Part shown: in pieces, positions 1 to 28,247 of the stretch
Layout: the number at the start of each line of letters is the position of its first letter
Position numbering within the stretch: the stretch's first letter is position 1
Made by a program: the position numbers and the translations under genes
The notes under the pieces: model-generated
Told to the model about the DNA's origin: nothing
The model's database searches: none
Seen by the model: only the letters and a program-made list of their open reading frames with translations
NCBI GenBank assembly: GCA_965197405.1
Contig: OZ240206.1
Span: 3,275,096 to 3,339,095 of the forward strand
Length of the DNA: 64,000 nt
Origin: Dehalococcoidia bacterium
GTDB taxonomy: Bacteria > Chloroflexota > Dehalococcoidia > Lucifugimonadales > JAGWBF01
Direction of reading: 5' to 3'

Positions 1-339
1 CACTCTACCACCGGATGCGTCACAGTCCTGTAGGGGGGAATAGATAGCGACGATACGTCCCTATCTCCCCTCCATGCTGTCTGGGGGGTACAAAATGGCA
101 TCAGCGGGCCGATTGCCGGGGTCCGCCGACCCCCAAATCACTCCTGTTTGAGCTACGAAACGGGGGTGACGTGTCGCCTGACCGGTCAGGGACAATTATG
201 GGAAGCTGCGCTAAAATACAGGACGAGTCTGATGACAACTTGATTGCACTTTGGGAACCCTGACGTGTCAGCCGATAGGGAGGGAACTAGCTATGGCTGA
301 ACCTGTCCGGCGTGTCCGCAGAGCTGATCGGGGCAGGAT

Positions 340-575
340 TTGGCGTGTCGGCGGCATCCGCGGCCCAGTTTGGTCCATCAGTTTTGGCGCGAAACGATGT
401 GGGGGAGGGCGACGCGATTTTGGGTGGGCGGGCAGAAACGGACATCCTGGGCCAGCCAGCTAGGAATTTGCGCCACATTCGGAGGAAATTAACGGGAACG
501 AGTGAACACTTTGAGTAAGGGCTGGTTCCGGCGAAAAGTGGATGAAATTGCAAAAGCGGGCCACCCCTGTAGAGG
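340..575 (-). repeat. Inverted copy of the non-coding M module (upstream region of the regulator family). It forms the left arm of a long inverted repeat around 582..1500.
   Basis: The reverse complement matches 1590-1865. For example, 500-531 GAGTGAACACTTTGAGTAAGGGCTGGTTCCGG matches the reverse complement of 1661-1690 CCGGAACGCACCCTTTCTAAAAGTGTTCGC. Shadow ORFs 251..463(+) and 1595..2128(-) both translate to GPVW..RCGGG..GHPGP. The repeat is imperfect and its extent is approximate. Confidence 0.6.
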
Positions 576-581
576 ATGGAA

Positions 582-1046
582 ATGAGTGACGGACGGGCAT
601 CGAGGGCCGACGACGATAGGCCCGACCTCAAGTGGGTCGTGGAGTGGCTGGTCGAGCGGGAAGGACAGCGCAAGACGGCGGCCCTCCTGGGTGTGAACCG
701 AAAGACGGTGGCGCTGGCCCTGCGCCGGGAGCGGTTGACGGGCAATATGGCCCTTGCCGTCCGGCGGCTCATGGCCAACCTGGACGACCCGGAGTGGGAG
801 AGGACGCCGCCGCTGGACAGGTTGGAGGCGAGGATACAGGTGGCGCTCGAAGCGGCGCACGAACTGGCGGCGCTGGTGGAGAGTCTGACGCAGCGCGTGG
901 AGGCCCTGGAGGCGGCACGGGAGCCCGAGGACGACGCTATCAGCCAGGAGTCGGCGGATGCGCCCGACGCTGAGGGGCGGGGTCTGCGTCTGTTCAACTG
1001 GAGGCGGAGGCGTCAGTCGCAGGGCGAGGAAAAGAGCGATGGATGA
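582..1046 (+). CDS. Small HTH plus coiled-coil regulator-like protein, a short paralogue of 29417..30268 and 53756..54595
   Basis: HTH-like KTAALLGVNRKTVALALRR, then a heptad-rich helix (LEARIQVALEAAHELAALVESLTQRVEALEAA). The start was moved to the second ATG (582), behind GAGGA. The stop overlaps the next start (ATGGATGA). The upstream TTGCAAAAG box resembles TTTGCAGAGGGAG upstream of the paralogues. Confidence 0.6.
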   Translation: MSDGRASRADDDRPDLKWVVEWLVEREGQRKTAALLGVNRKTVALALRRERLTGNMALAVRRLMANLDDPEWERTPPLDRLEARIQVALEAAHELAALVESLTQRVEALEAAREPEDDAISQESADAPDAEGRGLRLFNWRRRRQSQGEEKSDG

Positions 1047-1500
1047 GCCCGTCCGCTGGGTGACGAAGGCGGAGGCCGCTGAGGAGCTGGAGGTCTCCCT
1101 CTCGACTCTGGACCGGAAGATCAGGCAGGGAGAGGTGGAGGTCCGCAGGGAGGGCCGCCGGGTGTTCGTGCGGATGGCGGGGGAGTACATCACCGACGAG
1201 GAGCTGCTGCGCCGGACGATCAACAGGGAGCATGAGCTTGAGGGGACCGTGCGGGAGTTGGAGCAGAGCGTATCCGAGTGGAAGCTGAGAGCGTCCGAGT
1301 TGGAGCGGGAGCGAGACGAGGCCAGGGAGGCCGCAGCCACTGCCAGAGGGCCGTATGTGAAGCTTGAGTTGGAGCACCAGAGGGAGGTCTCCGACCACGA
1401 GGTGACGACGTTAGCGCTCAACGTCTTCCGCGTGGCCGCCATTGTGCTGCTCGTGCTGCTGGTCGGCAGCGTCCTCCTGTGGTGGTTTGTGCTGAGGTAG
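1039..1500 (+). CDS. MerR/excisionase-type HTH protein with a coiled coil and a C-terminal membrane helix
   Basis: WVTKAEAAEELEVSLSTLDRKIRQGEVEV is a typical excisionase/MerR-like HTH. Central ELE/ERE heptads are present. The C-terminal VAAIVLLVLLVGSVLLWWFVL is hydrophobic. ATG 1039 overlaps the upstream stop. Confidence 0.6.
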   Translation: MDEPVRWVTKAEAAEELEVSLSTLDRKIRQGEVEVRREGRRVFVRMAGEYITDEELLRRTINREHELEGTVRELEQSVSEWKLRASELERERDEAREAAATARGPYVKLELEHQREVSDHEVTTLALNVFRVAAIVLLVLLVGSVLLWWFVLR

Positions 1501-1544
1501 GGGAAGCGCTGTCGGCCCGTCACCTCGGTCTCCGTCTCCGTCTT

Positions 1545-1865
1545 CAAGGGACGTAACGCACCCCCACTTCAATCGCCTTTTCGGGGGCCTAATGTCATTG
1601 GGACCCCGCTCCAACCGGACGGCTGATGTCATTCCCCACGTTTGGCGATGTCATTGCCGTCCGGAACGCACCCTTTCTAAAAGTGTTCGCTGGATTTGTC
1701 CGACATACCCCCGAAATCAGCCCGTTTGCATAGCTGAGTGGCCCCGGATGTCCGCTTCTCCCCCAGGTCCCATTTTCGTGTACTCCCCCTCCACATCGAC
1801 CGGCGGCCAACCGGATGGGCCAAACGGGGCCGCCGTCCCCACCGGTTCGGAGCCCCGGGAGACCG
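1545..1865 (+). repeat. M module, direct copy; right arm of the inverted repeat
   Basis: 1545-1700 aligns with 30352-30507 at high identity (GGGACGTnAnGCACCCCCACTTCAATCGC...AATGTCATTGGGA...GATGTCATTCCCCACGTTTGGCGATGTCATTGCCGTCCGGAACGCA...AAAGTGTTC). 1590-1865 is the reverse complement of 340-575. Confidence 0.75.
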
Positions 1866-3014
1866 GCATCGAGACCCCGATCCACCGCCAACAGACCCCG
1901 CCGCATGGTTGACGTGTCACCATGTCCCGGCCCCGGTGAGCGCTGCGTCAGCGCCCCTTCCGAGGGACTGGGAGCGCCGTTTCCGCCGCGTCCTGCACCC
2001 CCACGTCCATCCCCTTCCGCGCCCCGTTTTCCGTCGCACCCGCCCTTTTGCCGCCGCGTCATGCCCACCACCATCCAACGAGTTTCGTTGGATTTGGCCT
2101 GAACGCGCCCTTTCAACGAAGTGTTCACTTTTCTTCTCCTGTAGGGCGCGATTTACCCCTGCCCCAGCTATGAAATTGCCCCTGCGTCCACTTCGCCGTC
2201 AAACGCAATACCCTGTACAGCCCCTCCACATGGTCCGCACCCCTCCATGTCGGCGGAGCCTGGAAGGTGCATCACACGCGATGCACTTTATGAGGGACAT
2301 GCGCCACAGCCCGACCAGATGCAGATATCGCCCGGGCATACTCCGCAGGGGCAGGCCCTGGTTATCCCGACCCGGTGATCACCGGCGCCGCCGCCGGGAC
2401 CACCACCCCCACATCCTTTAGGGCTCCCATAGGGGAAGTGAACCCTCCCCCAAATCGCCTCTGCGGTCTCCCGGACTGCTCGCTCCCATTTAGCTCCGGG
2501 CCGGGCTGGGACGTGGTTTCATACCTGGCGACCGCCCCGACTTCCCTTTTGGGAACTGACGCCCAAATCGGGTGAACCAGCCCTTACCAGAAAGTGCTCG
2601 CAACAACGGCCCCGACTTCCCTATTTTCGTCCTGTTTCAGGTTCAAAACATCCCCCGATTTCCCTTTTGGGAACTGACGCCATTCCTTGTACACGGGTAT
2701 GACATCAGATCCGGCTCCTGAAGGGGAAATTGACGGCCACCCAACAGCCTGCGCAGCTACGGATGGCCCTGCGGAGGGTCGATTTGGCCCGACATGGCCG
2801 ATATGCGGCCGGTACCACCCGCTTGCCGACTTCCCTTTTGGGAACTGGACCCCCAATTTTGAGGAATCAGACCTTACGCGACGCTCCTCTGAAGACCCCG
2901 GCTCTCCCGCTCCAAACTGCTCGCTCCGGTTTAGCAGACTGCCCCGTTCACCCCGATTTCAGCTACGAAACCGCCCGAGCTGCAACTTCACGATTCACCC
3001 AATCTCCTGTACAC
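1683..3014 (+). repeat. Gene-free array of diverged ~100-nt units (GTGTTCRC / TCCTGTAGRGG / hairpin / CAGCTACGAAAC / CTCCTGTACAC)
   Basis: The best units are 2121-2220 and a half unit at 2960-3014, with degenerate units at 1683-1784 and 2470-2700. The same ordered motifs with the same ~100-nt span occur at 30490-30590, 31021-31120 and 54729-54829. ORFs on the track here are low-complexity P/R/G shadows. Confidence 0.65.
2535..2852 (+). repeat. Three and a half copies of a palindromic box, CCCGACTTCCCTTTTGGGAACTGAC
   Basis: Copies lie at 2535-2563, 2652-2681 and 2824-2852, with a half copy at 2610-2640. The core TTCCC-TTTT-GGGAA is a perfect 5-bp dyad. Confidence 0.7.
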
Positions 3015-3097
3015 GGGTGAGACCCCGCCATGTCCCCTGGAATCTCGCGCCCCAAGAGGGGGTTTGTCCGCGTGCTCTGCGCCAGCGCCGGAGACGC

Positions 3098-3146
3098 TTG
3101 ACAGGGGTGTCGGAAATGGCGCAATATCTTGGTAAGACTCGATAAC
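3098..3146 (+). promoter_or_regulatory. Candidate promoter plus GGTAAGACTCGATAAC box upstream of the RHH-PIN operon
   Basis: TTGACA (3098-3103), an 18-nt spacer, then CAATAT (3122-3127). The box at 3131-3146 recurs upstream of rec1 (5702-5717) and partly upstream of the second RHH gene (33687-33704). Confidence 0.35.
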
Positions 3147-3159
3147 AAGGGGTTTGAAC

Positions 3160-3417
3160 ATGCCGCGAACGACCAAGACCATTACTTTCTCGTTGCCGCC
3201 GGAGATGGCCGACAGGGTGGACGAGGTGATGAAGCAGCAGGGACGGTCCCGGAGCGAATTCCTCCGGGAGGCCGTGCTCCGCTACATCGAGGAGTGCGAG
3301 TGGAGACAACTGCTCCAGTACGGAGAGGCGAAGGCCAGGGAGAAGGGCATCGGTCCCGATGACGTGTCCCGGCTGGTGGAAGAGTACCGGGCTGAGGTTG
3401 GCTCGGTCCGTGCATGA
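3160..3417 (+). CDS. Ribbon-helix-helix (CopG/MetJ-type) antitoxin
   Basis: MPRTTKTITFSLPPEMADRVDEVMKQQGRSRSEFLREAVLRYI is a classic RHH beta-strand plus two helices. Its stop overlaps the PIN start (ATGA). The start is taken at ATG 3160 rather than TTG 3154. Confidence 0.8.
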   Translation: MPRTTKTITFSLPPEMADRVDEVMKQQGRSRSEFLREAVLRYIEECEWRQLLQYGEAKAREKGIGPDDVSRLVEEYRAEVGSVRA

Positions 3418-3821
3418 GAGTCGTCCTCGACACCAACGTCATAGTCTCCGGCCTGAACTTCCCCGGCAATGAGCGCCTGGTGCTCGAACTGGCTCTCAGG
3501 GGACGGTTCGAGCTTTATGTGTCCACCTTCATCCTGGAGGAAGCTGCCGGGGTGCTGGGGCGTAAGTTCGATTGGGACGCGGAACGCTCGTCCCAGGCTC
3601 TCAGCGCGCTTGGGAATGCCGCGACGGTCATCTACCCCCGTAGACTCCCGGAGGTGATCGAGGGGGGCCACGCCGACAACCGCATCCTGGAGTGTGCCGT
3701 GGAGGCTTCCGCCGATTACCTGGTCACCGGCGACCGGCGGCACCTGTTGCCGCTTGGGACACACGAGGGAGTGAGAATCCTCAACGCTCCCCGCTTCCTG
3801 TCGGCGCTGGGAGAAGGATGA
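3414..3821 (+). CDS. PIN-domain toxin (VapC-like ribonuclease)
   Basis: MRVVLDTNVIVSG (first acidic residue). It continues ...LEEA..., ...ADNRILECAVEASADYLVTGDRRHLL, the PIN acidic quartet pattern. It is 135 aa and coupled to the RHH gene. Confidence 0.8.
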   Translation: MRVVLDTNVIVSGLNFPGNERLVLELALRGRFELYVSTFILEEAAGVLGRKFDWDAERSSQALSALGNAATVIYPRRLPEVIEGGHADNRILECAVEASADYLVTGDRRHLLPLGTHEGVRILNAPRFLSALGEG

Positions 3822-3879
3822 CACCAGACTGTATCTGGCCGACTTCGTTCGTTGAAGAATTTAGCAAGGAGGTGTTTTG

Positions 3880-5013
3880 ATGTCGCGAAAGTCATCAAAG
3901 CGCACCCCACATGACGAAGCGGTGGCAATCATCGAGCAACTCGTGACCAAGAACCTGGGAGGAAACCTCGAAGCCACGGCGTCATGTAACCAGTGCAGAG
4001 AAGAGCTTACGATAAACCTCGTAGCAGGAGGTTCCAGCGTCAGCCGAGAGAAGCTCGTGGGAACGGTGCGCCCCGACATCAGCCTGCTCGATGAGAATGG
4101 CGAGCCTGTCAGGTTCATAGAAGTGGTGGACAGCCATGCTCCCGAGGGGACGGTCCATGAGCAGGCCCTGCAAGAAGGCACTGAGGTGGTAGAAATCCAT
4201 CTAAGGGCCGAAAGGGAGTTCACAGGGAGAAGAAGGAACAAGGCTCTGGACGCGTCCCTGACAGCCAAAGCGAGATTAGAGGAGCTCGCCGCTGGACGGA
4301 TAGTTCTAGACGCCCACAACCTTCTTTGCCGCAGACCCAAGTGCAGGGAGTGTGACGCACCGCTACCGCTGAGAACGGTAACGGTCAGCACGAAGGACTG
4401 CTGGAAATGCGGCCAGAACGTGAACGTCGCTACGGGAGACAAAGACGGTGGGAGCCTTGAGCAAGACTATTTCACCACCGAGGAGATCGAATTCGCTCGG
4501 GAGAATGGGGTAACTCTGGAGCGCAGATTCAGCTCCACCGTTGGAGGAAAGTACCTGGCTAACGTGTGCACCGGGTGCGATCAAATCCAAGGGAACTGGT
4601 TCCTGTACATGGACCCGTATCACGACAGGTTCAATCTACACAAGGCGGAGCGACAGGTATACGGACCCTGCGACCGGTGCGCCACCCGCTACTGTATGAG
4701 TCATGGGGAGTACATGGACTATAGAGGCAGCAGCCAATGCCCGTCCTGCCTGGAAGAAGCAGAAAGAGTCATGTGCCCGAACAACCCGGACAGAGAATGC
4801 TTCTATCCCCAAAGGTGTGAAGAGGGCGGGTGCTACTTCCTGAACCGGGAACAACAGAGACGAGAGCAGCTAGAGCAGGCGGAACAGCAGCAACGGATAG
4901 AGCAGGAACGTCGCGAGCAGCAGCAACGGGAACGGCAAGAGCAGCGCGAACAAGAGCAGCGCCAATGGGCAGAGCTTCAGGAATGGTTCGACCAACGTCA
5001 AGGGCCGAGTTGA
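3880..5013 (+). CDS. Cys-rich multi-zinc-ribbon protein with an N-terminal CoiA/PD-(D/E)xK-like segment and a Q/E/R-rich tail
   Basis: CNQC..., then VRPDISLLDENGEPVRFIEVVDSH (a D...E-x-x nuclease-like core). Several CxxC pairs are present (CRRPKCREC, CWKCG, CTGCD, CDRC, CPSC). The C-terminal ~50 aa read REQQRREQLEQAEQQQRIEQERREQQQRERQEQREQEQRQ. AAGGAGG lies 10 nt upstream of ATG 3880. Confidence 0.6.
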   Translation: MSRKSSKRTPHDEAVAIIEQLVTKNLGGNLEATASCNQCREELTINLVAGGSSVSREKLVGTVRPDISLLDENGEPVRFIEVVDSHAPEGTVHEQALQEGTEVVEIHLRAEREFTGRRRNKALDASLTAKARLEELAAGRIVLDAHNLLCRRPKCRECDAPLPLRTVTVSTKDCWKCGQNVNVATGDKDGGSLEQDYFTTEEIEFARENGVTLERRFSSTVGGKYLANVCTGCDQIQGNWFLYMDPYHDRFNLHKAERQVYGPCDRCATRYCMSHGEYMDYRGSSQCPSCLEEAERVMCPNNPDRECFYPQRCEEGGCYFLNREQQRREQLEQAEQQQRIEQERREQQQRERQEQREQEQRQWAELQEWFDQRQGPS

Positions 5014-5014
5014 C

Positions 5015-5641
5015 ATGATTGACATTGACGGTCTTATGGGGAGCCTGGCGGACTCGCGGAAGGTGTTTCATTCGGAAGCAGACTTCCAGCACGCCCTGGC
5101 ATGGCATATGCACCAGGCCATGCCGGAAAGCCAGGTCAGGTTAGAGGTCGATGTCATGCAGGTAGAACACCAGAGGAGGTTCCTAGACATCTGGCTTCCG
5201 TTGGAAGGGATCGCTATCGAATTGAAGTACAAGACTCGGGGATTGGAACTGGAGCAAGACGACGAGCCCTTTGTCCTCCGCAACCAAAGCGCACAAGACC
5301 AAGGGCGGTATGACTTTCTCCTCGACATTCAGAGACTTGAGCTTATGCGCTCTAATCTGGAGCAATGCAAGGCTGCATATGCTGTGTTGCTGACCAACGA
5401 CTCTTCATACTGGAAGGTTCCCACGCAAAGAGACACGGTGGACGCCGACTTTCGTGTACACGAGGGGCGGGCGGTTTCGGGAGCATTGGCGTGGACGGCC
5501 CGGGCGAGTTCGGGAACGGTCCGGGGCCGAGAATCGCCGATACAGATACGGGACTCTTATCGTCTTCGCTGGCGGGAGTATTCCAACTTCCCTGGGAAGT
5601 CATACGGCAGCTTCCGGTATCTTGCGGTTTCAGTGGAGTGA
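5015..5641 (+). CDS. PD-(D/E)xK nuclease-fold protein
   Basis: RRFLDIWLPLEGIAIELKYKT gives a D...E-x-K motif in the usual beta-strand context. The ATG lies 1 nt after the upstream TGA (TGACATG), so the two genes are coupled. Confidence 0.6.
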   Translation: MIDIDGLMGSLADSRKVFHSEADFQHALAWHMHQAMPESQVRLEVDVMQVEHQRRFLDIWLPLEGIAIELKYKTRGLELEQDDEPFVLRNQSAQDQGRYDFLLDIQRLELMRSNLEQCKAAYAVLLTNDSSYWKVPTQRDTVDADFRVHEGRAVSGALAWTARASSGTVRGRESPIQIRDSYRLRWREYSNFPGKSYGSFRYLAVSVE

Positions 5642-5737
5642 TAGAGGCAGCGGCCGACAGCCGTTCCTTGACAATGGCCCCCTGGGTGAGTCATGATACT
5701 GAGTAAGACTCGGTAATTACAGGCAATGGAGGACAGC

Positions 5738-7390
5738 ATGAAGAAGCATCTACAGCCCCTAACGCCGGCGGCCCTCTACGCCAGGGTGTCCAGCGACCGG
5801 CAGGACGTGGACCTGTCCGTGTCCGCCCAGCTACGGGCGCTCAAGGAATACGCCAGGGCCAACGACTACTCCGTGGCCCGCGAGTACGTGGACGAGGCCG
5901 AGAGCGGCCGCGTCGCCGACAGGCCCCAGTTCAGGGAGATGATCGAGGAGGGCGGCAAGCCGAAGGCCCCCTTCGACGTGATCCTCGTATGGAAATTCAG
6001 CCGCTTCACCCGCAAGCGCGAGCACGCCGTAGCCTTCAAGTCCCAGCTGCGGCGCAAGGGCATCCGGGTGGTGTCCATCACCGAGCAGGCCGAGGACAAC
6101 GCCACCGGCAGGCTGCTTGAGGGAATCATCGAGAGCGTGGACGAATATTACAGCGAGAATTTGGCGCAGGAGGTCGTCCGGGGGATGAGGGAGGCCGCTT
6201 CCAGGGGCTTCTTCCTCGGCTCCAACGCCCCCTTCGGCTACAGGAAGATCAAGGTCAGCGACGGGGCGAAGGAGCGCCCCACCCTTGAGGTTGACCCGGC
6301 CACAGCCCCCGTGGTGCGGGAGCTATTCGAGAAGTCCCTGCGGGGCAGCGGCCTCAAGGAGCTATGCAAGGAGCTGAACGACCAGGGCATCACCAACAGG
6401 GGCAAGCGCTGGTACAAGGGAACGCTCCACTACGTGCTGCGAAACGAGGCGTACACCGGCACCGCCGTATGGGGCAAGAGCAGCAAGGGCCAGGAAGCCG
6501 CCGACCCTGTGCGTGTTGAGGGAGCGTGGCCCGCGCTGGTGTCGAGAGAGCTGTTCGAGGACGTGCAGCAGGCGATGAGCGAGCGCGCCCCGAAGGTGCA
6601 GAGGCCCGGTAGAGTTGGGAGCAAGTTCCTGCTGAGCGGGTTGCTCAAGTGCGGGGTGTGCGGCAGGCCCTACTCGGCCCAGGGAGCCAAGAGCGGCCAG
6701 TTCGCCTACTACATCTGCGGGACCCTGTTCAGGGAGGGAGCGGGGACGTGCAGCGCCCGCTACCTGAACGCCCCGAAGCTGGAGACGTTCGTGGTGGAGA
6801 AGATCAGGGAGCGTATCCTCAACGAGGAGACCATCGTGGCCCTCGTGACGCTGGTGGCCGAGGAGATCGACGCGATGGCCGGCGAGCTGTCCGGCAGGCT
6901 GAAGGTCGTCGAGGCGGAGCTATCCGACGTGAGGAAGCGTCTTGAGAAGCTCTACGAGGCCATTGAGACGAGCGAGTTGACCCTGGAGGTCCTGTCGCCC
7001 CGCATCATGTCTCTGAGGCACCGTGAGGAGCAGCTGGAGGCTGCGAGAGAGGACGCCGAGACCCAGATTGAGCAGAGGAGAGTGGAGCTGCCCAACACCG
7101 AGGAGGTAGCGCGGTACGTGGCTGACTTCCGGGACTTCCTGAAGGATGGGACGATCCCCGAGCGGAAGGCGCTCATCCGCAACTTCGTTGAGGGCATCAA
7201 GGTGACTGGTGACGAGGCTACGCTGACGTACACGGTCCCCATGCCGAGCGACGGAGCGATCTCGGAATCGGCCTCGGTTCTTGATTTCGTCAAGTCCAGC
7301 CCACCACCGCTTACGGTAGATACCGCCATCTTCGAGATGTCGCTCGGCAGCCTGTCGGCGCACCGAGGTCTGTCGATTCCTGTAGTGTGA
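5738..7390 (+). CDS. Large serine recombinase (rec1)
   Basis: The resolvase catalytic N-terminus reads AALYARVSSDRQDVDLSVSAQ. A recombinase domain follows, then a zinc ribbon (CGVCGRPY...YYICG...C) and a long coiled coil. The start is taken at ATG 5738, just after GGAGGA. It is paralogous to 33937..35619. Confidence 0.9.
   Translation: MKKHLQPLTPAALYARVSSDRQDVDLSVSAQLRALKEYARANDYSVAREYVDEAESGRVADRPQFREMIEEGGKPKAPFDVILVWKFSRFTRKREHAVAFKSQLRRKGIRVVSITEQAEDNATGRLLEGIIESVDEYYSENLAQEVVRGMREAASRGFFLGSNAPFGYRKIKVSDGAKERPTLEVDPATAPVVRELFEKSLRGSGLKELCKELNDQGITNRGKRWYKGTLHYVLRNEAYTGTAVWGKSSKGQEAADPVRVEGAWPALVSRELFEDVQQAMSERAPKVQRPGRVGSKFLLSGLLKCGVCGRPYSAQGAKSGQFAYYICGTLFREGAGTCSARYLNAPKLETFVVEKIRERILNEETIVALVTLVAEEIDAMAGELSGRLKVVEAELSDVRKRLEKLYEAIETSELTLEVLSPRIMSLRHREEQLEAAREDAETQIEQRRVELPNTEEVARYVADFRDFLKDGTIPERKALIRNFVEGIKVTGDEATLTYTVPMPSDGAISESASVLDFVKSSPPPLTVDTAIFEMSLGSLSAHRGLSIPVV
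7296..7330 (+). other. att-like core inside the rec1 3' end
   Basis: CCACCACCGCTTACGGTAGATACC aligns codon for codon with rec2 (CCACCAAACTTGACGGTAGACAGA) and rec3 (GGACTTCCGTTTACGGAAGATACC). Similarity between the three genes stops just downstream. Confidence 0.45.
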
Positions 7391-10584: not shown

Positions 10585-13500
10585 ATGACTCGCACCGATA
10601 GACGACGATTCCCCGTCCTGCTGGCCGTCATAGCGGCCCTGGCCCTGGCGATGGCCATGCCCTTCTCCATGGTCCATGCCCAGTCGGTCTCGGAGGGCGT
10701 CGACGACTGTCCCCGCAACACCACCACCACTTGCGAGGTGGAGGTGGGCGGCTCCGTCATGGGCACGATCGGCAACGACCTCGACACCGACTGGTTCAGG
10801 GTAGAGTTGAAGGCGGGCCGGACCTACCGGATCGACATGAAGGGCGCGATTCTCGTCGCCCCCGACACCCTCCTGGACCGCGAGCTCACCCTGCGCCTCC
10901 CGCAGATCAACACGATCCGTGGGAGGAATGGCGGTCAGCTTGTCAACACGTTTGGCCGCGACGAATCAAGCGCCCACCACCTGTTCCGTGTGACGTTTCA
11001 CGCCCATGCCGATGGCGCCCATTACATCGCGGCGAGCGGCGAGTCGTTCGAGAAGGGCGGCTACAAGCTGCGCGTCATCGACATCACGCGGGACGACGAC
11101 GCCACGCCGGTCGCCGTGACTGTCCAGTTCGGCGCGGCCAGCTACACCGCCACCGAGGGCGGGACCGCCGCCACGGTCACCGTCAATCTGAGCGCCGACC
11201 CGGAGCGTTCCGTGACAATCCCCGTCACCGCCGCAGGCGCAAACGGGGCCGGGAGCGGCGACTACACCCTGTCGGAGACGTCGGTGACCATCGACAGCGG
11301 CGAAACCTCGGCCACCTTCATCGTCACCGCCACCGACGACAGCGTGGACGACGACGGCGAGAGCGTGAACCTGAGCTTCGGCACTCTGCCCGACGCGGTG
11401 AGCCGCGGGGCGCTGGCCACCGCGTCGGTGAGCCTGGTCGACGACGACGGCGCCGACACCACCGCCCCGACGGTGGACTCGGCGACTGTGTCCCAGGACG
11501 GCACCAGCATCGACGTCGTCTTCGACGAGGACCTGGACGCCACCGGCTCGGAGCCCGCGGCGTCGGCGTTCGGGGTCACCGTCGACGGAGGCACTGCGGT
11601 CAACCCGGCGAGCGTGGCGATCAGTGACGACACGGTCACCCTGACCATGGCCTCCGCCGACGCCATCGCGGCGGGCGCGGCGGTCACCGTCGCCTACGAC
11701 AAGCCGACTTCCAACGCCCTGGCCGACGCCGCGAGCAACGAGGTCGAGTCGTTCACCGGCACGGACGCGATTGCCGCGTCCAACCGTCCGGCTGCTCCGG
11801 GCAAGCCGCAGAATGTTCAGCTCGTCTTTGAGGAGACGACGAGCGGCTATGACGCGAAGCTCTCGTGGGATGCGCCCGACGATCTCGGCGGCGGCACATT
11901 CCAAAGTTACAACTGGTTCCTGACCAAATCGGTAGGCGATGGCAACCTAGTCATCGAGTCGGACGACAGTCAGCAGACTGCGCCTGCGGCTGACTCGCCG
12001 ATCAGGGAGAGCCTGCCCTCGCCGGAGATTGGCGATGTCTACAAACTAACTGTCACGGTGTGGAACGAGGCCGCCTCCGCCTCCGCTGCGCGCAGTGCAA
12101 TCTTCGTGCACGGCGAAACGGGGGTGCCCGAGGTCACGCAGGCTGCAATTAGAAGTGACGGGCTGCTGCTTGCCTGGAGTGCGCCCGAGATCGCTTCAAG
12201 CCTGGATGTCACCGGCTACCAGGCCCGCTACAAGCTGACCGGCGCGGCCGACGTCGACGACAGCTGGACGACGGTTGCGGCCGGCGCCACCAGCCCGTAC
12301 ACAATCACGGGCCTCGCGGACAGCGCCGGCTACAACGTGCGGATGCGGGCGGTCATTGAATGGAACAGCGGCGACTATTACGGCGACTGGTCGGAAGCGA
12401 AGCGTGCGGACAACCCCTCGATCGTCGCCGGCGGGGTGGAAGTGAGCTCAGACCCGGATAGCGACAACACCTACGGACGAGGCGAGACCATCGAGTTCAC
12501 GGTCGAATTCAACGAGGCGGTGACAGTCACCGGCGAGCCGGAGTTCGAGTTCTGCCTTGGGGCTGTTGACGCTTCCTGTACGGAGGGCACGGACCCGCCA
12601 GCGCGGCGGCGGGCCGCGCACAGCTCCGGCGACGGCACTGACAAGCTGGTGTTCAGCTATGTCGTGGGCCTGAGATTCACCGACCTCGACACGGACGGCA
12701 TCCGGATCGGCGACAGCGCCATCAGGCTCGGCGACGACGAAAAGATCGTCAGCGCCGACACTGAAACTGCGGCCTATCTCAGCCATGCGGCGCTCGGCAT
12801 CCAGACGGGCCACAGGGTGGACGACTCCAACGTGGCTGACACGACGGCGCCGTCGGTGTCGTCGGCGAAGGTGTCGGAGGACGGTATGACCATCCTTATC
12901 GTCTTCGACCAGGCGCTGGACAGCAGCTCGACAGTGGAGACCGGGGAGTTCGCGGTGACGGTGGGCGCGGCGTTGCCGAGGAAACCGTTGGGCGCGGCGC
13001 TGAGCGGCGCCGATACGGTGACACTGACCATCCACGACCCCCTCAACGTCACCCCGACCACGGCGATTGCGGCGGGCGAGACGGTGAGTGTGGCGTACAC
13101 CGCGCCGGCCACGGGCGGCCTGCAGGACAACAGCAGCAACAAGGCAGCGGGGTTCACCGAGAACGTGATCAACCGGCCCGCCAAGCCCACCGGGTTGACG
13201 CTGACCGACGGCCACGAAAAGCTGACAGCGTCGTGGACGGCGCCCACTGCGACAGGCGGCAGCGCCATCACCCGCTACGACGTGGAGTGGAAGACCGCCG
13301 CCCAGACCTGGGCCGAGGCCGCCACCGCCGGGCAGTCCGCAACCGCCGCGGCCGATGCCACCACCCATGAGATCACCGGCCTGACCAACGACACCGAGTA
13401 CACGGTGCGGGTGCGGGCGGTGAACGGCGCGGGGAACGGCCCGTGGAGCACGGAGGAGTCGGAAACGCCGGCAGTTCCCGCCAACAAGAATGCCGACCTT

Positions 13501-16500
13501 GCCGACCTGAGCATTGAGGGCGTCACCGTGGAGGGCTTTGACAAGGACACCCTCTCCTACGAGGTCGTGGTCGTCCTCCCGGCCCGCTCAGGCGTCAACT
13601 TTGTCACCATCGAGACTACGACGGTGAACGACCAGGCCACGGTCGGTTACCTCCCCGTCGCCACCGACGCCAGCGTCGCCAGCCCCGGCTACCAGGTGAC
13701 CGTGCTCCTTAGGACGCCGACCACGTACAGGATCACGGTCACCTCGGCGGACGGGAGCGTGACCAAGGAGTACGCGATCGAGATCACGCGCTACACGCTG
13801 CCCGGCGCGCCGCGCAGGCTGGACGCGAGGGCCAGCCACCGGCAGGTCGAGCTCTCCTGGAACGATCCGGACAACAGCGACATCGAGAGCTACCAGTACC
13901 GGGTGAGCGGCGACGGCGGCAACACCTGGGACCCGGACTGGACCGAGATCAACGGCAGCGGCGCCTCGACCACCGGCCTTACGCTGACCGACCTGGACCA
14001 CCGCACGGAGTACAAGTTTGAGGTGCGGGCGGTGGTTCAGGGAGCCGCGGGCGCGGCTGCGTCGGTCACCGCCACGCCGGACGACGACTTTCCCAACGAC
14101 ACCACCACCACCGGGGAGTTGGACGTGGGCGGCTCGGTCACGGGCAACATCGAATTCGGAGATGACGTGGACTGGTTCAAGGTCGTGCTGGAGGCGGGCA
14201 CGCGATACCAAATCGACCTTGAGGGCGCGGATACCGGCCGCGGCACCCTGGTAGACCCGGCTATAGAATTCCTCGCCGATTCGATGGGCGACGGGATTGC
14301 AGATACAGAAGACTCCGATAATGGCGTGGGCAAGAACGCCCGGGCTATCTACACGCCAACCGCGGCCGGCGCCTACTACGTGAGTGTATCGTCTGAGACC
14401 TCAGCGCCGGGCACCTACACGGTGTCGGTGATCGTGCTGGGCGCGAACGGCGCCTCGGAGGCCGACACGGACTTTCCCGACACGACCTCCACCACCGGCC
14501 GGGTCGAGGTCGGGGCCTCGGCCACGGGCAACATCCACACCGGTGGCAACAGGGACGCGTTCCGCGTCGACCTGAACGCAGGCAAGGTCTACCAGGTCGA
14601 CCTGGAGGGAGCGGGGACCAACAGGGGCAGCCTGGATGACCCGCAACTGTTCGCGATCGCCGATTCGACTGGTTCTTCGATATCCGGGGGGGACAACAAT
14701 GACATCAGCAGCAGCAACCTCAACAGCCGGGTGACCTTCACGCCGACCGACGCCGGCAGCTACTACGTGTTGGTCAGGGGCAACGGCACGAGCACCGGCA
14801 CCTACACGCTGTCGGTGCGCGACGTCACGCCGCCCGACGCTCCGGGCGGCCTGGACGCGCAGGCCAGCTACCGGCAGGTCGACCTCTCCTGGAACGATCC
14901 GGACAACAGCGACATCGACAGCTACCAGTACCGGGTGAGCGACGACGGCGGCAACACCTGGGACCCGGACTGGACCGAGATCGACGGCAGCGACGCCTCG
15001 ACCACCGGCCTTACGCTGACCGACCTGGACCACCGCACGGCGTACAGGTTTGAGGTGCGGGTGATGGTTCAGGGAGCCGCGGGCGCGGCTGCGTCGGTCG
15101 CCGCCACGCCGGCGGCGACCACCGTGCCCCACGACTGGGACCTGCGGCCGCCGGGCGTGGCCACGGGGAAGACTTTCCGCCTGCTGATCGTCACCTCCGA
15201 CAGGCGCAACGGTCAATCGGGGGATGTCGACGATTACAACGACCACGTGCAGGATGCAGCGGCTTCGGGCCATTCGGACATCCAAGACTACAGTTCGGAG
15301 TTCCGGGCGCTGGTCGGGACCAAGGGCGGCGCCTCGCCCAGGGACAACACCCACTCGAATAAGAACAGCGACGGGCGGGGCGAGCAGATCTGGTGGCTGA
15401 ACGGCCCCAGGGCCGCCAACGACTACGACGATTTCTACGACGGCTCCTGGGACCACACCAACCCGGTGAGGCTCGAATCGGGCAACTCCCGTACCTTCTA
15501 CGACGTGGACGACAATGACGAGCAATTTTATAAGCGGATAATCTGGACGGGCGCCACGGCCGAGGGGGCTCGCTCCGGCAGCAGGCACCTGGGAAGCGAC
15601 GACGGTGAAGGCTATGTCGGCGTTCCCTACTTCGAGAACGGCCCGTTGCGACTTGGTGGCCGGTGGGTAACAACCAACAGATCCCTCCGTTTGTACGGTC
15701 TCTCTCCGGTCTTCCTCGTCGAGGCGCCGGACGCTCCCTACGCGACGACGGCCGCCATCACGACGGACCCGGCCAACGGGACCGACTACCGGACCGGCGA
15801 GGTGGTCAAGGCCACTGTGACCTTCAGCGAGGACGTGACGGTGACGGGGACGCCGCAGTTGCCGCTGCAAATCGGCGGCGATGAGCGCGACGCTGACTAC
15901 GCGGCCGGCGACAGCAGCTCCACCGTGCTGTCGTTCTCATACGTTGTCACCGACGATGACACCGACCGGAACGGCATCTCCATCGACGCCTTCGCCCTGA
16001 AGCTCAACGGAGGCACCATCAAGCGCACGGACACCGACGTGGACGCGGCGCTGACCCATACACGCGTCCTCGACGACGATGACCACAAGGTGAACCTGCC
16101 GCCGCTCATCACCGGCGTCGAGGTGACGTCCACCCCGCAGGCGGCCAACGACACCTACGGGCTGGGGGAGGACATCGAGATCACCGTCACCTTCAGCGAG
16201 GCGGTGAACGTCACCGGAGACGTCGAGTTCGGGATCAGCGCCGGCGGGCCGAAGCAGGCGCGGCTCAAGAGCGGCAGCGGCACCACCGAACTGGTGTTCG
16301 CCTACAAGGTGCAGGCCGCCGACGAGGACGACGACGGCATCTGGATCGGCAACCACAACACCGACCACCCGACCTTCGACCTCCAGGCCGGCCAGTCCGT
16401 CGTCGGCGTCGACTCGGGACGCCCCGCCTTGCTGGAGCACAGCGTGGAAGGCACCCAGGGCGGCCACAAGGTGGACGGCGACAATACAGCAGCCGACGCC

Positions 16501-19500
16501 ACCCTGTCGGCGCTGTCGCTGAGCGGGATCACTTTGGACCAGACGTTCACCGCGGGCGCTGCGGGCACGGCGGTCACCAGCTTCACCGCCACGACGGATG
16601 CCGCCCCCACCACGGTGACGGCCATTCTGACGGCCACGCCCACCCAGAGCGGCGCCAGCGTGGCGATCACTCCCGCCGACGCCGACATCAACACCACCGA
16701 CCACGAGGTGGACCTGGACGTCGGCGACACTGTCATCACCATCGCGGTGACCTCCAGCAACGGCGACGTAGTGCGCACATACACCATCACCGTCACCCGC
16801 CCGGCGGGGATCGGGGTGCCTCACGACTGGGACCTGAGGCCGCCGGGCATCGCCACGGGGAAGACGTTCCGCCTGCTGATCGTCACCTCCGACAGGCGCA
16901 ACGGTGAATCGGGGGATGTCGACGATTACAACGATCACGTGCAGGATGCGGTGGCTTCGGGCCATTCGGCCATCCAAGACTACAGCTCGGGTTTCCGGGC
17001 GCTGGTCGGGACCAAGGGCGGCGCCTCGCCCAGGGACAACACCCACTCAAATAAGGATAGCGACGGGCGGGGCGAGCAGATCTGGTGGCTGAAGGGCCCC
17101 AAGGCCGCCGACAACTACGTCGATTTCTACGACGGCGACTGGGACCACACCAACCCGGTGAGGCTCGAATCGGGCAACTCCCGTACCTTCTACGACGTGG
17201 ACGCCAATGAACAACAATTTAATCGCCGGATAATCTGGACGGGCTCCCGGTACGACGGGGTTCGCTCCGGTAGCAGGCACCTGGGAAGCGACGGCGGGCA
17301 AGCCTATGTCGGCGTTCCCTACTTCGAGAACGGCCCGTTGCGATATGGTAGCCGGCGCGTAGATACCTACAGATCCCTCAGTTTGTACGGTCTCTCTCCG
17401 GTCTTCCTCGTAGAGGCGCCGGACGCTCCCTACGCGACAACGGCCGCCATCACAACGGACCCGGCCAACGGGACCGACTACCGGACCGGCGAGGTGGTCA
17501 AGGCCACCGTGACCTTCAGCGAGGATGTGACGGTGATGGGGACGCCGCAGTTGCCGCTGCAAATCGGCGGCGAGGAGCGCGACGCTGACTACGCGGCCGG
17601 CGACAGCAGTTCCACCGTGCTGTCGTTCTCATACACAGTCACCGACGACGACACCGACCGGGACGGCATCTCCATCGACGCCTTCGCCCTGAAGCTCAAC
17701 GGAGGCAGCATCAAGCGCGAGGACACCAACGTGGACGCCGCGCTGACCCATACGCGCGTCCTCGACGACGATGACCAGCTCGTCAACCTGCGCCCCCTTA
17801 TCACGGACATTGAGGTGACCTCCACCCCCCAGGCGACCAACGCCAACGACACCTACGGGCTGGGGGAGGACATCGAGATCACCGTCACCTTCAGCGAGGC
17901 GGTGAACGTCACCGGAGACGTCGACTTCGGCCTCTCCGTCGGCGGGGCGAAGCGGGCGCGGCTGGCGCGCGGCAACGGCACCACCGAGCTGGTGTTCGCC
18001 TACACGGTGCAGTCCGGCGACGACGACGACAACGGCATTTTCATTGGCAACCAGGACTCTACCAACGCCACACTAGCCCTCCAGGACAGCCAGACCATCG
18101 TCGGCGCCGTCTCGGGCCTCCGCGCCGATCTCGACCACGATGAGGAGGGAAGAAAGGACGACCACAAGGTGGACGGCAGCCTGACCGCAGCCGACGCCAC
18201 CCTGTCGGCGCTGTCGCTGAGCGACATCACCCTGGTCCCGGCGTTCGCCCCCGGCGCCACGGCATACACCGCCACGACGAGACTCTCCTCCACCACGGTT
18301 ACCATCGCCATCTCCCAGGGTCAGAACGGGGCCACCGGTAGAATCACCGCCCCCGCCGACGCCGACCTCAACGCAAGCGGCCACCAGGTCAACCTCGCAG
18401 AAGACGCCGACACCGTCATCACCATCACGGTGACCTCTTCCAACGGCGACTCGATGCGCACCTACACCGTCACGGTCACCCGCCAGCCGGCGATCGAAGA
18501 CGACGCCACCCTGTCGGTGCTGGCGCTGAGCGGCGGAATCACCCTGGCCCCGGCGTTCGACCCACGCACCACGGCCTACGCCGCCACGACCACGGCCACC
18601 ACCACCACGGTGACGGCCACCGCCAGCCAGAGCGGCGCCAATATGGACATCGATCCCGACGACGCCGACACCAACACGACGGACCACGATGTGAACCTCG
18701 CAGAAGGCGACACCGTCATCACCGTCACGGTGATCTCCAGCAACGGCGACTCGACCCGCACCTACACCGTCACGGTCACCCGCGAGGCCGCAAACGGGAA
18801 CAGGTCCGCCCCGCCGCCGCCCAAAAACGTGCGGGCGGTCGAGGAGAAGGGCGGGGTCAGGCTGACCTGGCAGCCCCCCGACGGCCCCGCGGTCACCGGA
18901 TACCGCATCGAGCGCCGCCCCGCCGACGGGCAGGGCAGCGGTCCCCAGCGTTCCCACGGGCAGCCCAGGGACCACCACACCCTGGTGGAGGACACCGGCA
19001 GCGCCGATACCGGCTATACCGATGAGAGCGCGGAACAGGGCGTCGGGTACGAGTACCGGGTGACCGCCCGCAACGAGTCCGGCCCGGGCGAGGGCTCGGA
19101 CTGGGTGAGGTCCGGGCCGGAGCCGGCATCCAACGCTCCGGCCACCGGCGCGCCGACCATCAGAGGCACGGCGCAGGTGGGAAAGACATTGACGGCGGAC
19201 ATCACCGGCATCTCCGACGCCGACGGTCTGAGCGGCGAGACGTTCAGCTACCAGTGGGTATCCGGTGACGGAACAACCGATACGGATATCGAGGGTGCGA
19301 CCGGCTCGACCTATACCCTCGCAGCAGCCGACCAGGGCAGGTCGGTCAAGGTCAGGGTGACCTTCACCGACGACGGCGGCAACGAGGAGACCCTGACCAG
19401 CGCGCCCACGGGTCCGGTGCTGGGCGACGGCCCGCCGGGAGCGCCCCGCAACCTCACCGCCACCCCGGGAAACCAGGAGGTCACCCTTTCCTGGGACCCG

Positions 19501-22117: not shown

Positions 22118-23700
22118 CTGTGAATCTGGGATAATGGTTTTGGAACAGCAAAGCCGACCCCAGAACAAGGAGCACCCAATAGATGCTACCACGCAACCAT
22201 CCCGATCGCATCCAAATCGCGTTTGACGACCCCCGCCTGGTGGCCAATGCTGGGCTGCTGCTCCCGGTGACCCTAGCCCAGCACCTGGGCCTGCGTGAAG
22301 TCGTCGACAGCCACGTCGACCTGGGAGACGCGCCGGGGCGGGCGAACCCGGGAGACAAGCTGCTGACCCTGGTGGCCTCGGCGCTGGCTGGGGGCGACTG
22401 CATTGACGACGCCGACGTGTTGCGTAGGGGCGGGACAGCTGGCGCCATCGGCTGCGTAGTCAAGGCGCCATCCACCCTGGGAACTTTCCTGCGCAGCTTC
22501 CGGTGGGGCCACGTCCGCCAGTTGGATCGGGTGAGCCGGGAGCTGCTGTCCCGGGCCTGGGCCGCTGGTGCGGGACCCGGCGAAGGGCCGTTGACCATCG
22601 ACCTAGACTCCACCATCTGCGAGACCTACGGACTGGCCAAGGAGGGGGCGTGTCACCATGGTTACACTGGCCAGCGGGGCTATCACCCGCTGCTGGCCAT
22701 CGCCGCCGGCACTGGCGACGTGCTGATGTCTCGGCTGCGCGAGGGCCGGGCCAACACCGTTCGGGGCGCCGCCCACTTCCTGCGGGAGACCGTGAGCCGG
22801 GTGCGCCATGCTGAGGCTACAGGACAACTCACGGTGCGGGCCGACAGCGGCTTCTATGCCCACGCCCTGGTCGCCGCCTGCCGCGAGATGGATGTCCGCT
22901 TCTCCATCACCATCCGCCAACACGCCCGCCTCAGGGAGTTGATTGAGGCGATTCCCGAGGAGGACTGGACGCCCGTCCCCTACTGGATGGACGGCGGCGC
23001 CGACGTGGCCGAGACCACCTACACTCCCTTCCAGGGTGAGCCCGCAGCCGCCCCAGTGCGGCTCATCGTCCGGCGGGTGAAGCCCACGCCCGGTTCCCAA
23101 CTGGTCCTCTTCGCCAGCTACAGCTATCACGGCTTCATCACCGACCGGGACGGGGAAACCCTGGAACTGGAGGCCGACCATCGCCGCCACGCCGAGATCG
23201 AGAATGCCATCCGAGACCTCAAGCACGGCGTCGGCCTCAACCATTTCCCCTCGGGCCGCTTCCCCGCCAACGGCGCCTGGCTGGCCGTCCAGGTGCTGGC
23301 CCATAACCTGGCCCGCTGGACCGCGCGCATCGGTCTGGGCGAGGGGGTGGTGACCACCAAGACCCTCCGGCGGCGCTTCTTCTCCCTGGCCGGACGGCTC
23401 ACCCGCTCGGCCCGCCGCCTCACTTTGCATCTGCCACAGGGCTGGCCTTGGAAAACCCAGTTCACTCGCGCCCTGGCTCGATTGCGAGCCCTGCCTTTGC
23501 CTGCCTGACGGCACCGACGGCGCCTGACCCGTCCACCAGACTACCCAACCGCCCCACAGAGTCGCACCGGCCCGGTCCGCGATTGTCTTCCCCTGCATGC
23601 TGTCCCGCCGACCCCGCCCCAGCGCCGCTGCCAGGACCGCCATCGGCGCCCCCAACGACAACCAAAGGCCGCCACCGGCCCCATTTATCGGAATCGAGCG
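22118..23700 (+). mobile_element. IS1380-family insertion sequence (ends approximate)
   Basis: Contains transposase ORF 22183..23508. The candidate imperfect inverted repeats are GTGAATCTGGGATAATGG (about 22120) and CCATTTATCGGAATCGAG (about 23680, reverse complement CTCGATTCCGATAAATGG). A length of about 1.6 kb fits the family. Confidence 0.55.
22183..23508 (+). CDS. IS1380-family DDE transposase
   Basis: The N-terminus is typical of the family: DRIQIAFDDPRLVANAGLLLPVTLAQHLGL...GDKLLTLVASALAGGDCIDDADVLR. Later motifs are HGYTGQRGYHPLLA and ...HRRHAEIENAIRDLKHGVGLNHFPSGRF. Confidence 0.85.
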   Translation: MLPRNHPDRIQIAFDDPRLVANAGLLLPVTLAQHLGLREVVDSHVDLGDAPGRANPGDKLLTLVASALAGGDCIDDADVLRRGGTAGAIGCVVKAPSTLGTFLRSFRWGHVRQLDRVSRELLSRAWAAGAGPGEGPLTIDLDSTICETYGLAKEGACHHGYTGQRGYHPLLAIAAGTGDVLMSRLREGRANTVRGAAHFLRETVSRVRHAEATGQLTVRADSGFYAHALVAACREMDVRFSITIRQHARLRELIEAIPEEDWTPVPYWMDGGADVAETTYTPFQGEPAAAPVRLIVRRVKPTPGSQLVLFASYSYHGFITDRDGETLELEADHRRHAEIENAIRDLKHGVGLNHFPSGRFPANGAWLAVQVLAHNLARWTARIGLGEGVVTTKTLRRRFFSLAGRLTRSARRLTLHLPQGWPWKTQFTRALARLRALPLPA

Positions 23701-26997: not shown

Positions 26998-27030
26998 GAC
27001 GGGCCCGGCGCAGTACCGCCGGGCCGTCGC
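26998..27030 (-). terminator. GC-rich hairpin just downstream of the 4xHTH gene
   Basis: GACGGGCCCGGCG-CAGTA-CCGCCGGGCCGTC lies 11 nt beyond the stop at 27041. It directly abuts the inferred IS1182 end. Confidence 0.4.
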
Positions 27031-27040
27031 CCACGCCTCG

Positions 27041-28153: not shown

Positions 28154-28196
28154 CGGTCCGTCCTCCTTCTGTTGTGTTGTGTTGCCTCTGGCCTGC

Positions 28197-28247
28197 GCCC
28201 GCTTGCGGGCAAAGAAGAAGGGCCGTCCCCGGATGGGAACGGCCCTT
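28197..28247 (-). terminator. Two hairpins followed (on the minus strand) by CTTCTTCTTTG, in the 5' leader of the 4xHTH gene
   Basis: On the minus strand, AAGGGCCGT..ACGGCCCTT is followed by CTTCTTTG, then GCCCGCAAGCGGGC, about 45-95 nt upstream of the ATG. The same arrangement occurs at 51507-51558, and a single hairpin lies at 50565-50597. Confidence 0.45.

Follow-up and report, generated by a model that had tools for sequence, protein, structure and literature searches.

The 64-kb window analysed here (64,000 nt of contig OZ240206.1 from a Dehalococcoidia bacterium; G+C content 64.6%; all coordinates refer to the whole window) carries four full copies of a non-coding unit of about 100 nt, in which nearly invariant sequence boxes follow one another in a fixed order. 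The observation is real and highly non-random. We read it, with a probability of roughly 45%, as a promoter/operator core conserved as double-stranded DNA, part of the control region of a new family of integrative conjugative elements (ICEs) of Dehalococcoidia, where it would co-regulate the operons for transfer, DNA processing and excision. The main rival is an origin of transfer, which may coexist with a promoter; a structured RNA is among the other alternatives weighed below.

The unit and its copies in the window

When the four full copies are aligned, the mean column identity is 76%, and the order and spacing of the blocks are those described in an earlier, sequence-only reading of the window. 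In all four, AAAGTGTTCRC is followed by eight nucleotides, TCCTRTAG, a G-run/C-run inverted repeat (hairpin 1), CAGCTACGAAA, about 35 nt and YCCTGTACAS; with the leading AAA the unit measures 103-104 nt. A profile built from the four (nhmmer) returns the same four, at the places and on the strand where they had been reported, with E = 1e-29 to 1e-32, together with three partial copies, and the unit motifs are enriched over dinucleotide shuffles. The full copies are as follows.

2118-2220, plus strand: full unit of subtype D (nhmmer 97.3 bits), between the operon of a candidate relaxase and two proteins called pA and pB and the genes for ribbon-helix-helix (RHH), PIN and serine recombinase proteins
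30487-30590, plus strand: full unit of subtype A (nhmmer 104.7 bits), 219 nt from the start of the divergent gene reg
31019-31121, plus strand: full unit of subtype B (nhmmer 105.7 bits), bearing the palindrome TTGCATTTTTGCAA; second member of an A-B array
54726-54829, plus strand: full unit of subtype C (nhmmer 97.8 bits), with the palindrome TGCAAACTTGCA; at the canonical site between reg and the operon for a type IV secretion system (T4SS)

The following are incomplete.

497-530, minus strand: inverted, solo, promoter-like 5' part (GGAAC-N14-AAAGTGTTCAC), divergent from pA
1674-1701, plus strand: 28-nt 5' piece of an A-type unit (GGAAC...AAAGTGTTCGC; nhmmer E = 0.018)
2560-2695, plus strand: degenerate unit of the TTCCC..GGGAA subtype (nhmmer match 2626-2693; repeats at 2535, 2653 and 2826)
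2947-3014, plus strand: 3' half of a unit (CAGCTACGAAAC ... CTCCTGTACAC; nhmmer E = 1e-7, match 2947-3013)

Degenerate copies had been reported before, and they exist, with other extents than those given. The piece at 1674-1701 is a truncated 28-nt fragment that runs on into D-type upstream sequence, colinear with loci L002, L016 and L049. The match at 2626-2693 covers the 3' part of a unit with an internal deletion; this unit has lost hairpin 1, and its GTGTTC box is mutated to GTGCTC. The match at 2947-3013 is a 3' half. At 26-161, where copies had also been claimed, there are merely isolated boxes. The 575-nt spacer from the end of the relaxase gene to pA holds scrambled unit pieces, at 497-530 (minus strand) and 25-162 (plus strand), and this spacer together with pA looks like a mirrored, decayed copy of a reg-unit module. 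The A-B array of the window is also kept in L005, L009, L045, L063, L112 and L002+L075.

The earlier statement that no open reading frame (ORF) accounts for the units holds. Family copies of 99, 100 and 101 nt are all common, a length variation that shifts the frame, and the ORFs that overlap units lack the coding-type G+C content at third codon positions that marks genuine genes in this genome. The units are therefore not coding.

Distribution and gene contexts

An exact-pattern scan for AAGTGTTCRC-N8-TCCTRTAG, over one genome per GTDB species, found at least 119 loci, and the family counts, contexts and alignments given here rest on the matches listed in that scan. Among the matches listed, at least 114 loci contain the unit, in at least 135 full-length copies (132 distinct), all from metagenome-assembled genomes (MAGs) of Dehalococcoidia/Chloroflexota. 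Five pattern matches outside Chloroflexota (Bacteroidales, Accumulibacter, Thiotrichales) have no unit in them. The 3' three-quarters of the unit, which the pattern leaves unconstrained, are still conserved, with CAGCT, the spacing and CCTGTACA(C/G)CCC. Several copies are present in many MAGs, and in many loci two units lie 430-600 nt apart. A blastn search of PLSDB (72,556 plasmids) gave no DNA match to the units.

The units had been thought to occur only next to regulators, which is roughly true in the window; across 131 copies several contexts recur. In the majority context (among the matches listed), the gene for a protein with multiple Xre-type helix-turn-helix (HTH) domains and the gene reg lie on the minus strand, and the unit, a leader of about 170 nt and the T4SS operon follow on the plus strand. 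About 20 of the 131 units occur as groups of one to three between the relaxase-pA-pB operon, in which the relaxase is a winged-HTH (wHTH) protein and pB an HTH_17 protein, and genes for an RHH protein (in part with PIN) and a large serine recombinase. The order reg, unit, serine recombinase accounts for about 10 more. In L014 the order is reg, unit, relaxase (wHTH protein), HTH_17, and L072 is alike, with no reg match within reach. Where the neighbouring genes are recognised, the unit is followed by an operon on the same strand. Because these contexts hold T4SS, relaxase-like and serine recombinase genes, the units sit in ICEs, which most likely form a previously undescribed family of uncultured Dehalococcoidia. 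Three related ICEs or ICE remnants are arranged head to tail in the window.

1-7390: right end of the first ICE
about 27000-35620: second ICE, a T4SS-deleted derivative
from about 47500 to 64000: left part of the third ICE

The middle element has lost its T4SS-relaxase module, so that a B-type region now follows on from unit A, its leader and the start of T4SS gene 1. A like tandem pattern is found in CBDCTY010000002.1 (L056, L013), where a recombinase end is followed 10-20 kb on by the next Xre/reg start.

Palindromes typical of operator DNA

Apart from the invariant boxes, many units contain a second inverted repeat (hairpin 2) that covaries. It is 58.7% paired, shifts in register between subtypes, and is a perfect palindrome in about half of them, with centres of 1-4 nt; examples are TTGCA-N4-TGCAA, TGTACA-ACA-TGTACA, TGCAA-AC-TTGCA, TTCC-N6-GGAA and TGGACA-AC-TGTCCA. 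Subtypes A, D and F are without it. In the 215 nt upstream of the unit its own palindrome occurs again 0.73 times per locus, against 0.09 for foreign palindromes. In A-type loci, three ATGTCATT repeats, 25-90 bp from the unit, stand upstream in place of a palindrome. The upstream regions in the window are these.

1548-1673, plus strand: upstream region of A type, where ATGTCATT stands three times as a direct repeat (1592, 1626, 1648) and GCACCCCCAC boxes are present; 88% identical to 30355-30508
30355-30486, plus strand: A-type upstream region with ATGTCATT at 30399, 30433 and 30455, and GGAAC at 30470
54600-54725, plus strand: C-type upstream region with two more copies of the palindrome of unit C (CTGCAAAATCGC, CTGCAAACTTGCC)

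Another perfect palindrome, of about 34 bp, lies some 25-60 nt after the unit in most related loci. It has the form CCTATAGG-N6-TCA nn TGA-N6-CCTATAGG, followed by GGTAGTTATGCC, with a 2-nt centre, inner arms that covary, and mismatches that are symmetric between the strands (22 G.T versus 19 A.C). This is probably a second operator. It has three places in the window.

2270-2297: palindrome of the 34-bp type
31159-31192: 34-bp palindrome downstream of unit B, CTTACAGGGGCGCTCA CG TGAGCGCCCTCATGGG
54870-54916: long palindrome downstream of unit C

Short centres, recurrence outside the unit and strand-symmetric mismatches are typical of operator DNA, and argue therefore for double-stranded sites of dimeric proteins. 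The suggestion of a protein or recombinase binding array, made in the sequence-only reading as an option, fares well in its first half, as these same features fit protein binding to double-stranded DNA; its recombination half does not, as breakpoints lie at the start codon of the downstream gene and not in the unit.

The palindromes of hairpin 2 are predicted to be operators of the divergently encoded reg; their linkage with the type of regulator is confounded by common descent. Two reg genes face full units in the window.

29417-30268, minus strand: reg (283 aa), divergent from unit A
53756-54595, minus strand: reg paralogue (279 aa), divergent from unit C

The reg proteins match no Pfam family; the reg family numbers 424 homologues. 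Three proteins of the window had no exact match on record, and the look-up of reg led to a 53-kb ENA contig that ends at most one gene beyond the coupling-protein gene. The structural model of reg has an N-terminal HTH weakly like those of N15 Cro and lambda cII, a coiled coil of 60 residues and a C-terminal helical domain, and on this model reg looks like a DNA-binding regulator.

The unit as RNA, and the leader behind it

The sequence-only reading had taken compensatory changes in the hairpin as a sign of a structured RNA, a leader or small RNA (sRNA). In 119 distinct units, hairpin 1 is 86.7% paired, with a nearly invariant G-run and C-run, and its five pairs contain just 5 double-change cells in about 595. 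The four hairpin variants in the window are mostly boundary shifts of these two runs. An outer CTG/CAG stem has no double changes. A long-range TGTAGGG/CCCTGTA stem, which RNAalifold proposes from the four window copies, was rejected, there being zero covariation in the 119 units. With 128 units RNAalifold gives no consensus structure. Against dinucleotide shuffles, the folding z-scores of ten diverse units lie between -2.3 and +1.1 (mean about -0.3 on the plus strand and -0.2 on the minus strand); a hairpin in the neighbouring leader, used as positive control with the same method, scores -5.8. In raw energy the minus strand is the more stable (-27.8 vs -21.7 kcal/mol), an edge that must be compositional, because the z-scores are near zero on both strands. 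The remark that no known RNA family could be assigned stands: at gathering thresholds Rfam gives no match anywhere in the window, and around three of the four units it gives, at E <= 5, matches of chance level only. The unit is not followed by a terminator.

We therefore consider it improbable that the unit is a functional structured RNA, be it the 5' leader of an operon (for example, a processive antitermination element) or a discrete sRNA. Its fixed length and orientation and the high pairing of hairpin 1 would suit such an RNA, as would its position ahead of long operons and the presence, further on in the same leader, of a genuine regulatory RNA hairpin; most of the unit would also be transcribed if the GGAAC/GTT motif described below is a promoter. 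Against this, the conserved stems do not covary, no consensus fold, excess stability or Rfam family supports them, and the energy asymmetry favours the wrong strand. Hairpin 2, which does covary, is absent from several subtypes and shifts in register; its loops measure 1-4 nt, and it occurs again ahead of the putative transcription start. The same points separate the unit from HK022 put, EAR and conjugation-operon leaders, which it resembles in its length of about 100 nt, its two hairpins and its location, immediately behind a putative promoter and preceding long operons; unlike the put and EAR leaders, it has no covariation, excess folding energy or Rfam match. Operator palindromes that co-vary with their regulators can thus mimic RNA covariation, and the checks that separate the two here are loop length, recurrence of the palindrome outside the candidate, and the strand symmetry of mismatches.

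The leader hairpin behaves differently from the unit, and is seen at two places.

30723-30798, plus strand: what remains of the leader hairpin downstream of unit A, where the T4SS gene that followed has been deleted
54933-55002, plus strand: leader RNA hairpin, in which CCTCCACACTC is paired with the Shine-Dalgarno sequence GGAGGAGG and with the GTG start of the first T4SS gene

In the leader, GTTCACACTCTCT pairs with AGAGAGGTGAAC, the Shine-Dalgarno sequence plus start codon. The homologous leader at L078:1560-1660, on the minus strand, is the positive control mentioned above (-41.4 kcal/mol). Between loci the leader has compensatory changes and G.U pairs, and its plus strand folds better than its minus strand (p = 9e-4). 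The hairpin looks like a means of regulating the transfer operon at the level of translation.

A putative promoter at the upstream edge

Since the leader acts as RNA, transcription enters upstream of it on the plus strand. In the reg-unit-gene layouts a promoter is also required here, because the spacer of about 450 nt is the sole room for two divergent promoters. At the 5' edge, straddling the boundary of the unit, lies GGAAC-N17/18-GTT (spacing read from three window copies), whose GTT is within AAAGTGTTCAC. Of 106 distinct flanks, 88 have AAC at position -17 or -16 relative to AAGTGTTC, outside the search pattern, as a conserved -35-like element. SigR/SigH-type promoters of extracytoplasmic function (ECF) sigma factors read GGAAT-N18-GTT, and the motif is like them in its GGAAC, its 17/18-nt spacer, its GTT and the kept AAC position. 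No convincing sigma-70 -35/-10 pair is present in or beside the units.

In the mechanism that we favour, the unit would be the invariant core of an intergenic control region of about 400 nt, acting as double-stranded DNA, and would serve as a scaffold of protein-binding sites round a rightward promoter. GGAAC-N17/18-GTT would be the candidate promoter, followed by the boxes TCCTGTAG, the G5/C5 inverted repeat, CAGCTACGAAA and TCCTGTACAC. Many subtypes add an element-specific palindrome, which is repeated once or twice upstream of the putative promoter. The Cro/cII-like HTH coiled-coil protein reg may bind these palindromes and could bridge sites on both sides of the promoter; the invariant boxes would likewise be protein-binding sites. 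By directing the T4SS, relaxase or serine recombinase operon according to its position, the unit would join transfer and excision in one regulon, and T4SS-less derivatives and mixed-subtype arrays could answer the regulators of co-resident elements.

Several observations weigh against a promoter/operator. No sigma-factor gene was found among the window proteins scanned, nor, in contrast to known SigR/SigH promoters, a cognate sigma or anti-sigma gene in the window. A stretch of 100 nt of nearly invariant boxes exceeds the needs of a promoter, and the apparent invariance of the 5' 26 nt is partly circular, because the search pattern fixed them. A sigma-70-like promoter near 3099 (TTGACA-N18-CAATAT), some 900 nt past unit D, belongs to the RHH-PIN-recombinase operon itself, so that unit D is not the proximal promoter of that operon. 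The fold search with reg gave weak local HTH matches only (Foldseek E > 1). Finally, intact arrays of two or more different subtypes are explained at least as easily by an origin of transfer.

A possible origin of transfer and other explanations

That the unit is the core of an origin of transfer (oriT), possibly overlapping a promoter, is a possibility that we put forward tentatively, at clearly less than an even chance. The invariant boxes would then be the nick site and recognition sequence of a MOBC-like (Replic_Relax) relaxase, the palindromes and direct repeats of the subtypes would bind accessory proteins of the reg/pA family, and the extra copies and mixed arrays would let several helpers mobilise T4SS-less derivatives; a promoter role can coexist with all of this. 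The unit is non-coding, is carried on a conjugative element, heads the T4SS operon and occurs again beside the relaxase operon. The order of genes in L014 is the classic adjacency of oriT and relaxase, pA, a paralogue of reg, is encoded directly after the relaxase gene, and the unit is kept in every T4SS-less derivative.

A close parallel is with the pWBG749 family of S. aureus plasmids, in which oriT subtypes and oriT mimics have an identical core and a diverged inverted repeat (PMC8136818, PMC4652767). As in that family, the unit is a non-coding module of the order of 100-150 bp on a conjugative element, its invariant core is accompanied by a variable inverted repeat that recurs upstream (in pWBG749 at about 50 bp, as ossA/ossB), and relatives that are not conjugative have two or three copies, mostly of different subtypes, in arrays whose composition varies between genomes (PMC8136818). 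The two share no sequence similarity and differ in relaxase family, and the accessory protein is a ribbon-helix-helix tetramer, SmpO, in pWBG749, whereas the candidate here is an HTH coiled-coil protein. Unlike the pWBG749 oriTs, the Dehalococcoidia unit, a putative oriT, points into the downstream operon where the flanks are recognised and has two copies per full element.

The candidate relaxase (L014:1809-3956) matches the Pfam family Replic_Relax (PF13814) over the full domain (E = 2.7e-5), with a score just under the threshold (24.8 vs 25.3 bits), and a fragment in L028 matches with E = 1.3e-4. Replic_Relax proteins are counted as MOBC relaxases by CONJscan (PMC5357655). TraX, a MOBC relaxase that has a winged HTH, binds to direct repeats at a distance of 70-120 bp from nic (PMC12857230); the N-terminal wHTH domains of the candidate and the ATGTCATT repeats 25-90 bp upstream of A-type units parallel this binding-site architecture. 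Set against an oriT are that sub-threshold score, the failure of the PLSDB search to find DNA similarity to any plasmid, and the constant aim of the unit, where its flanks are recognised, into the downstream operon, an orientation that an oriT does not need. In a full ICE, moreover, relaxase-mediated deletion or partial transfer would be the expected outcome of having two direct copies, one before the T4SS operon and one after the relaxase operon. The unit has a conserved inverted repeat, hairpin 1, followed by an invariant CAGCT box, and we know of no MOBC nick-site consensus with which these could be compared. It is doubtful that the unit is a dual-purpose hub, at once oriT core and promoter of the transfer regulon, in which swappable palindromes define 'immunity/mobilisation subtypes' and mixed arrays before the serine recombinase let T4SS-less satellites sense, and be mobilised by, co-resident helper ICEs.

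The remaining explanations regard the unit as a site of recombination or as a mobile repeat. An att- or res-like site for the neighbouring large serine recombinase, with arrays and half-units as scars of integration, is very unlikely. Units do lie upstream of serine recombinase genes, as direct repeats they flank the T4SS-relaxase module, the reg-unit-recombinase derivatives look like deletions between them, array content varies between genomes, and degenerate or half units are present. However, the homology of the T4SS-deleted locus to intact A-type loci stops where the start codon of T4SS gene 1 lies (30804-30806), some 215 nt beyond the unit, and the unit is not an element end, because conserved ICE genes are present on both flanks in most loci. 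Large serine recombinases use att sites of about 50 bp that share little beyond a central dinucleotide, which also counts against such a site, as do the tail-to-tail recombinase fragments (34662-36369; L040), which indicate integration at the 3' end of a recombinase gene. Resemblance to integron attC sites, Mu ends and Tn7 ends was considered and rejected, as the core motifs differ and the copies are not element ends; no attC core sites (RYYYAAC...GTTRRRY) are visible in the unit sequences. A selfish miniature repeat, of the type of a miniature inverted-repeat transposable element (MITE) or a repetitive extragenic palindrome, or a fragment of an insertion sequence (IS), is scarcely credible. 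The unit has multiple copies and a weak terminal symmetry, GTGTTCAC agreeing with the reverse complement of CTGTACAC at 6/8 positions. There are no target-site duplications, and the IS transposases of the window are not adjacent to units, save for one IS upstream of reg (52763-53692). The fixed synteny, all but a few copies being in the same positions of one element family, is the reason for excluding a MITE; the units are not the IS or MITE fragments that the sequence-only reading had kept in mind as a possible undoing of its proposal.

Other genes and repeats of the elements

The operons that the unit precedes or follows are represented in the window by the following genes.

576-1500, plus strand: pA (reg-like HTH protein of 156 aa, a short or truncated reg paralogue) and pB, the tail of the relaxase operon that ends in a unit array
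5726-7390, plus strand: large serine recombinase downstream of the first unit array (Pfam; paralogue at 33937-35619)
54996-64000, plus strand: T4SS operon (Pfam matches and gene calls)

The T4SS operon encodes a signal-peptide protein, a VirB6/TrbL-like protein, two VirB2-type pilins, a 566-aa protein, a VirB4/TraC ATPase and a VirD4-type coupling protein, the last less than 28% identical to any plasmid protein. The pB protein combines an excisionase-like HTH_17 domain with a C-terminal transmembrane segment. Small groups of genes separate the units from the recombinase genes: one for an RHH antitoxin and a PIN toxin (3154-3821), one for a second RHH protein (33621-33944), with no toxin gene identified, and one for a PBECR2 nuclease and a DUF2283/HTH_17 protein (31853-32593). 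A self-inverted repeat of 1.7 kb (34662-36369) is formed by serine recombinase 3' halves placed tail to tail (33937-35619, plus strand, and 35424-36329, minus strand). The arrangement recurs in L040 and suggests integration into the 3' end of a resident recombinase gene.

Two genes that are 82% identical (27041-28153 and 49418-50539, both on the minus strand) encode the multi-Xre protein, of about 370 aa with four or five tandem Xre-type HTH domains. In 28 loci this protein is conserved at a distance of 2-4 kb upstream of the unit, and it is a candidate for reading the invariant boxes, which are evenly spaced. The non-coding stretch between the Xre-like gene and reg at 28460-29300 contains tandem repeats of about 96 nt (28563-28690 vs 28659-28792) and shorter repeats of the GAAGCGATCAACTCCGACCGCC type; a short piece is found again at 52329-52398 and 53360-53392. 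Just left of the Xre-like gene of the third element, and also in L120, there is a gene for a Peptidase_S24 protein of the LexA/CI autocleavage type (47568-48571, minus strand), which could be an SOS-responsive master repressor of the ICE.

Giant genes for repetitive surface proteins lie between the ICE modules: 10585-21660 on the plus strand (3691 aa, with internal repeats), 39773-41875 on the minus strand (collagen/DUF11, 700 aa) and 41920-47409 on the minus strand (cadherin-domain, 1829 aa). Their products may serve as adhesins in mating, or the genes may be cargo. The four IS transposase genes of the window represent different DDE families and lie at 22183-23508, 25134-26873, 38527-39048 and 52763-53692; in the third element the last is inserted between reg and the Xre-like gene, and it is missing from the otherwise matching contig L120.

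Comparison with known control regions and significance

The arrangement of one cis-acting element before several operons has precedents. In SXT/R391 elements the SetCD boxes, and in IncC plasmids and SGI1 the AcaCD boxes, place one cis box before the transfer, DNA-processing and excision operons, and the boxes are also present in T4SS-less mobilisable derivatives. These boxes measure about 20-30 bp and are the binding sites of an FlhDC-like activator, whereas the unit has about 100 nt with several separate boxes, and no FlhDC-like activator was found. In pIP501 and RP4 the oriT overlaps the promoter of the tra operon, so that the intergenic region is both promoter/operator and relaxosome site; there is one oriT per replicon, and in pIP501 the relaxase gene is the first of the operon. 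As in these plasmids, an intergenic region heads the transfer operon in the Dehalococcoidia elements; no sequence similarity to them was found.

To our knowledge, Dehalococcoidia are abundant, mostly uncultured bacteria without genetic tools, and we found no published description of a conjugative element or of conjugation in them. What emerges in outline from the loci compared here is a native ICE family that is widespread and combines a T4SS with a MOBC-like relaxase, a large serine recombinase and a sharply defined cis module of about 100 nt. If the unit is the main promoter/operator, or the oriT, of these elements, it would be useful for building shuttle or mobilisable vectors and for reading horizontal gene flow. 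If it should prove to combine the two functions, it would point to a network of helpers and satellites in this lineage.

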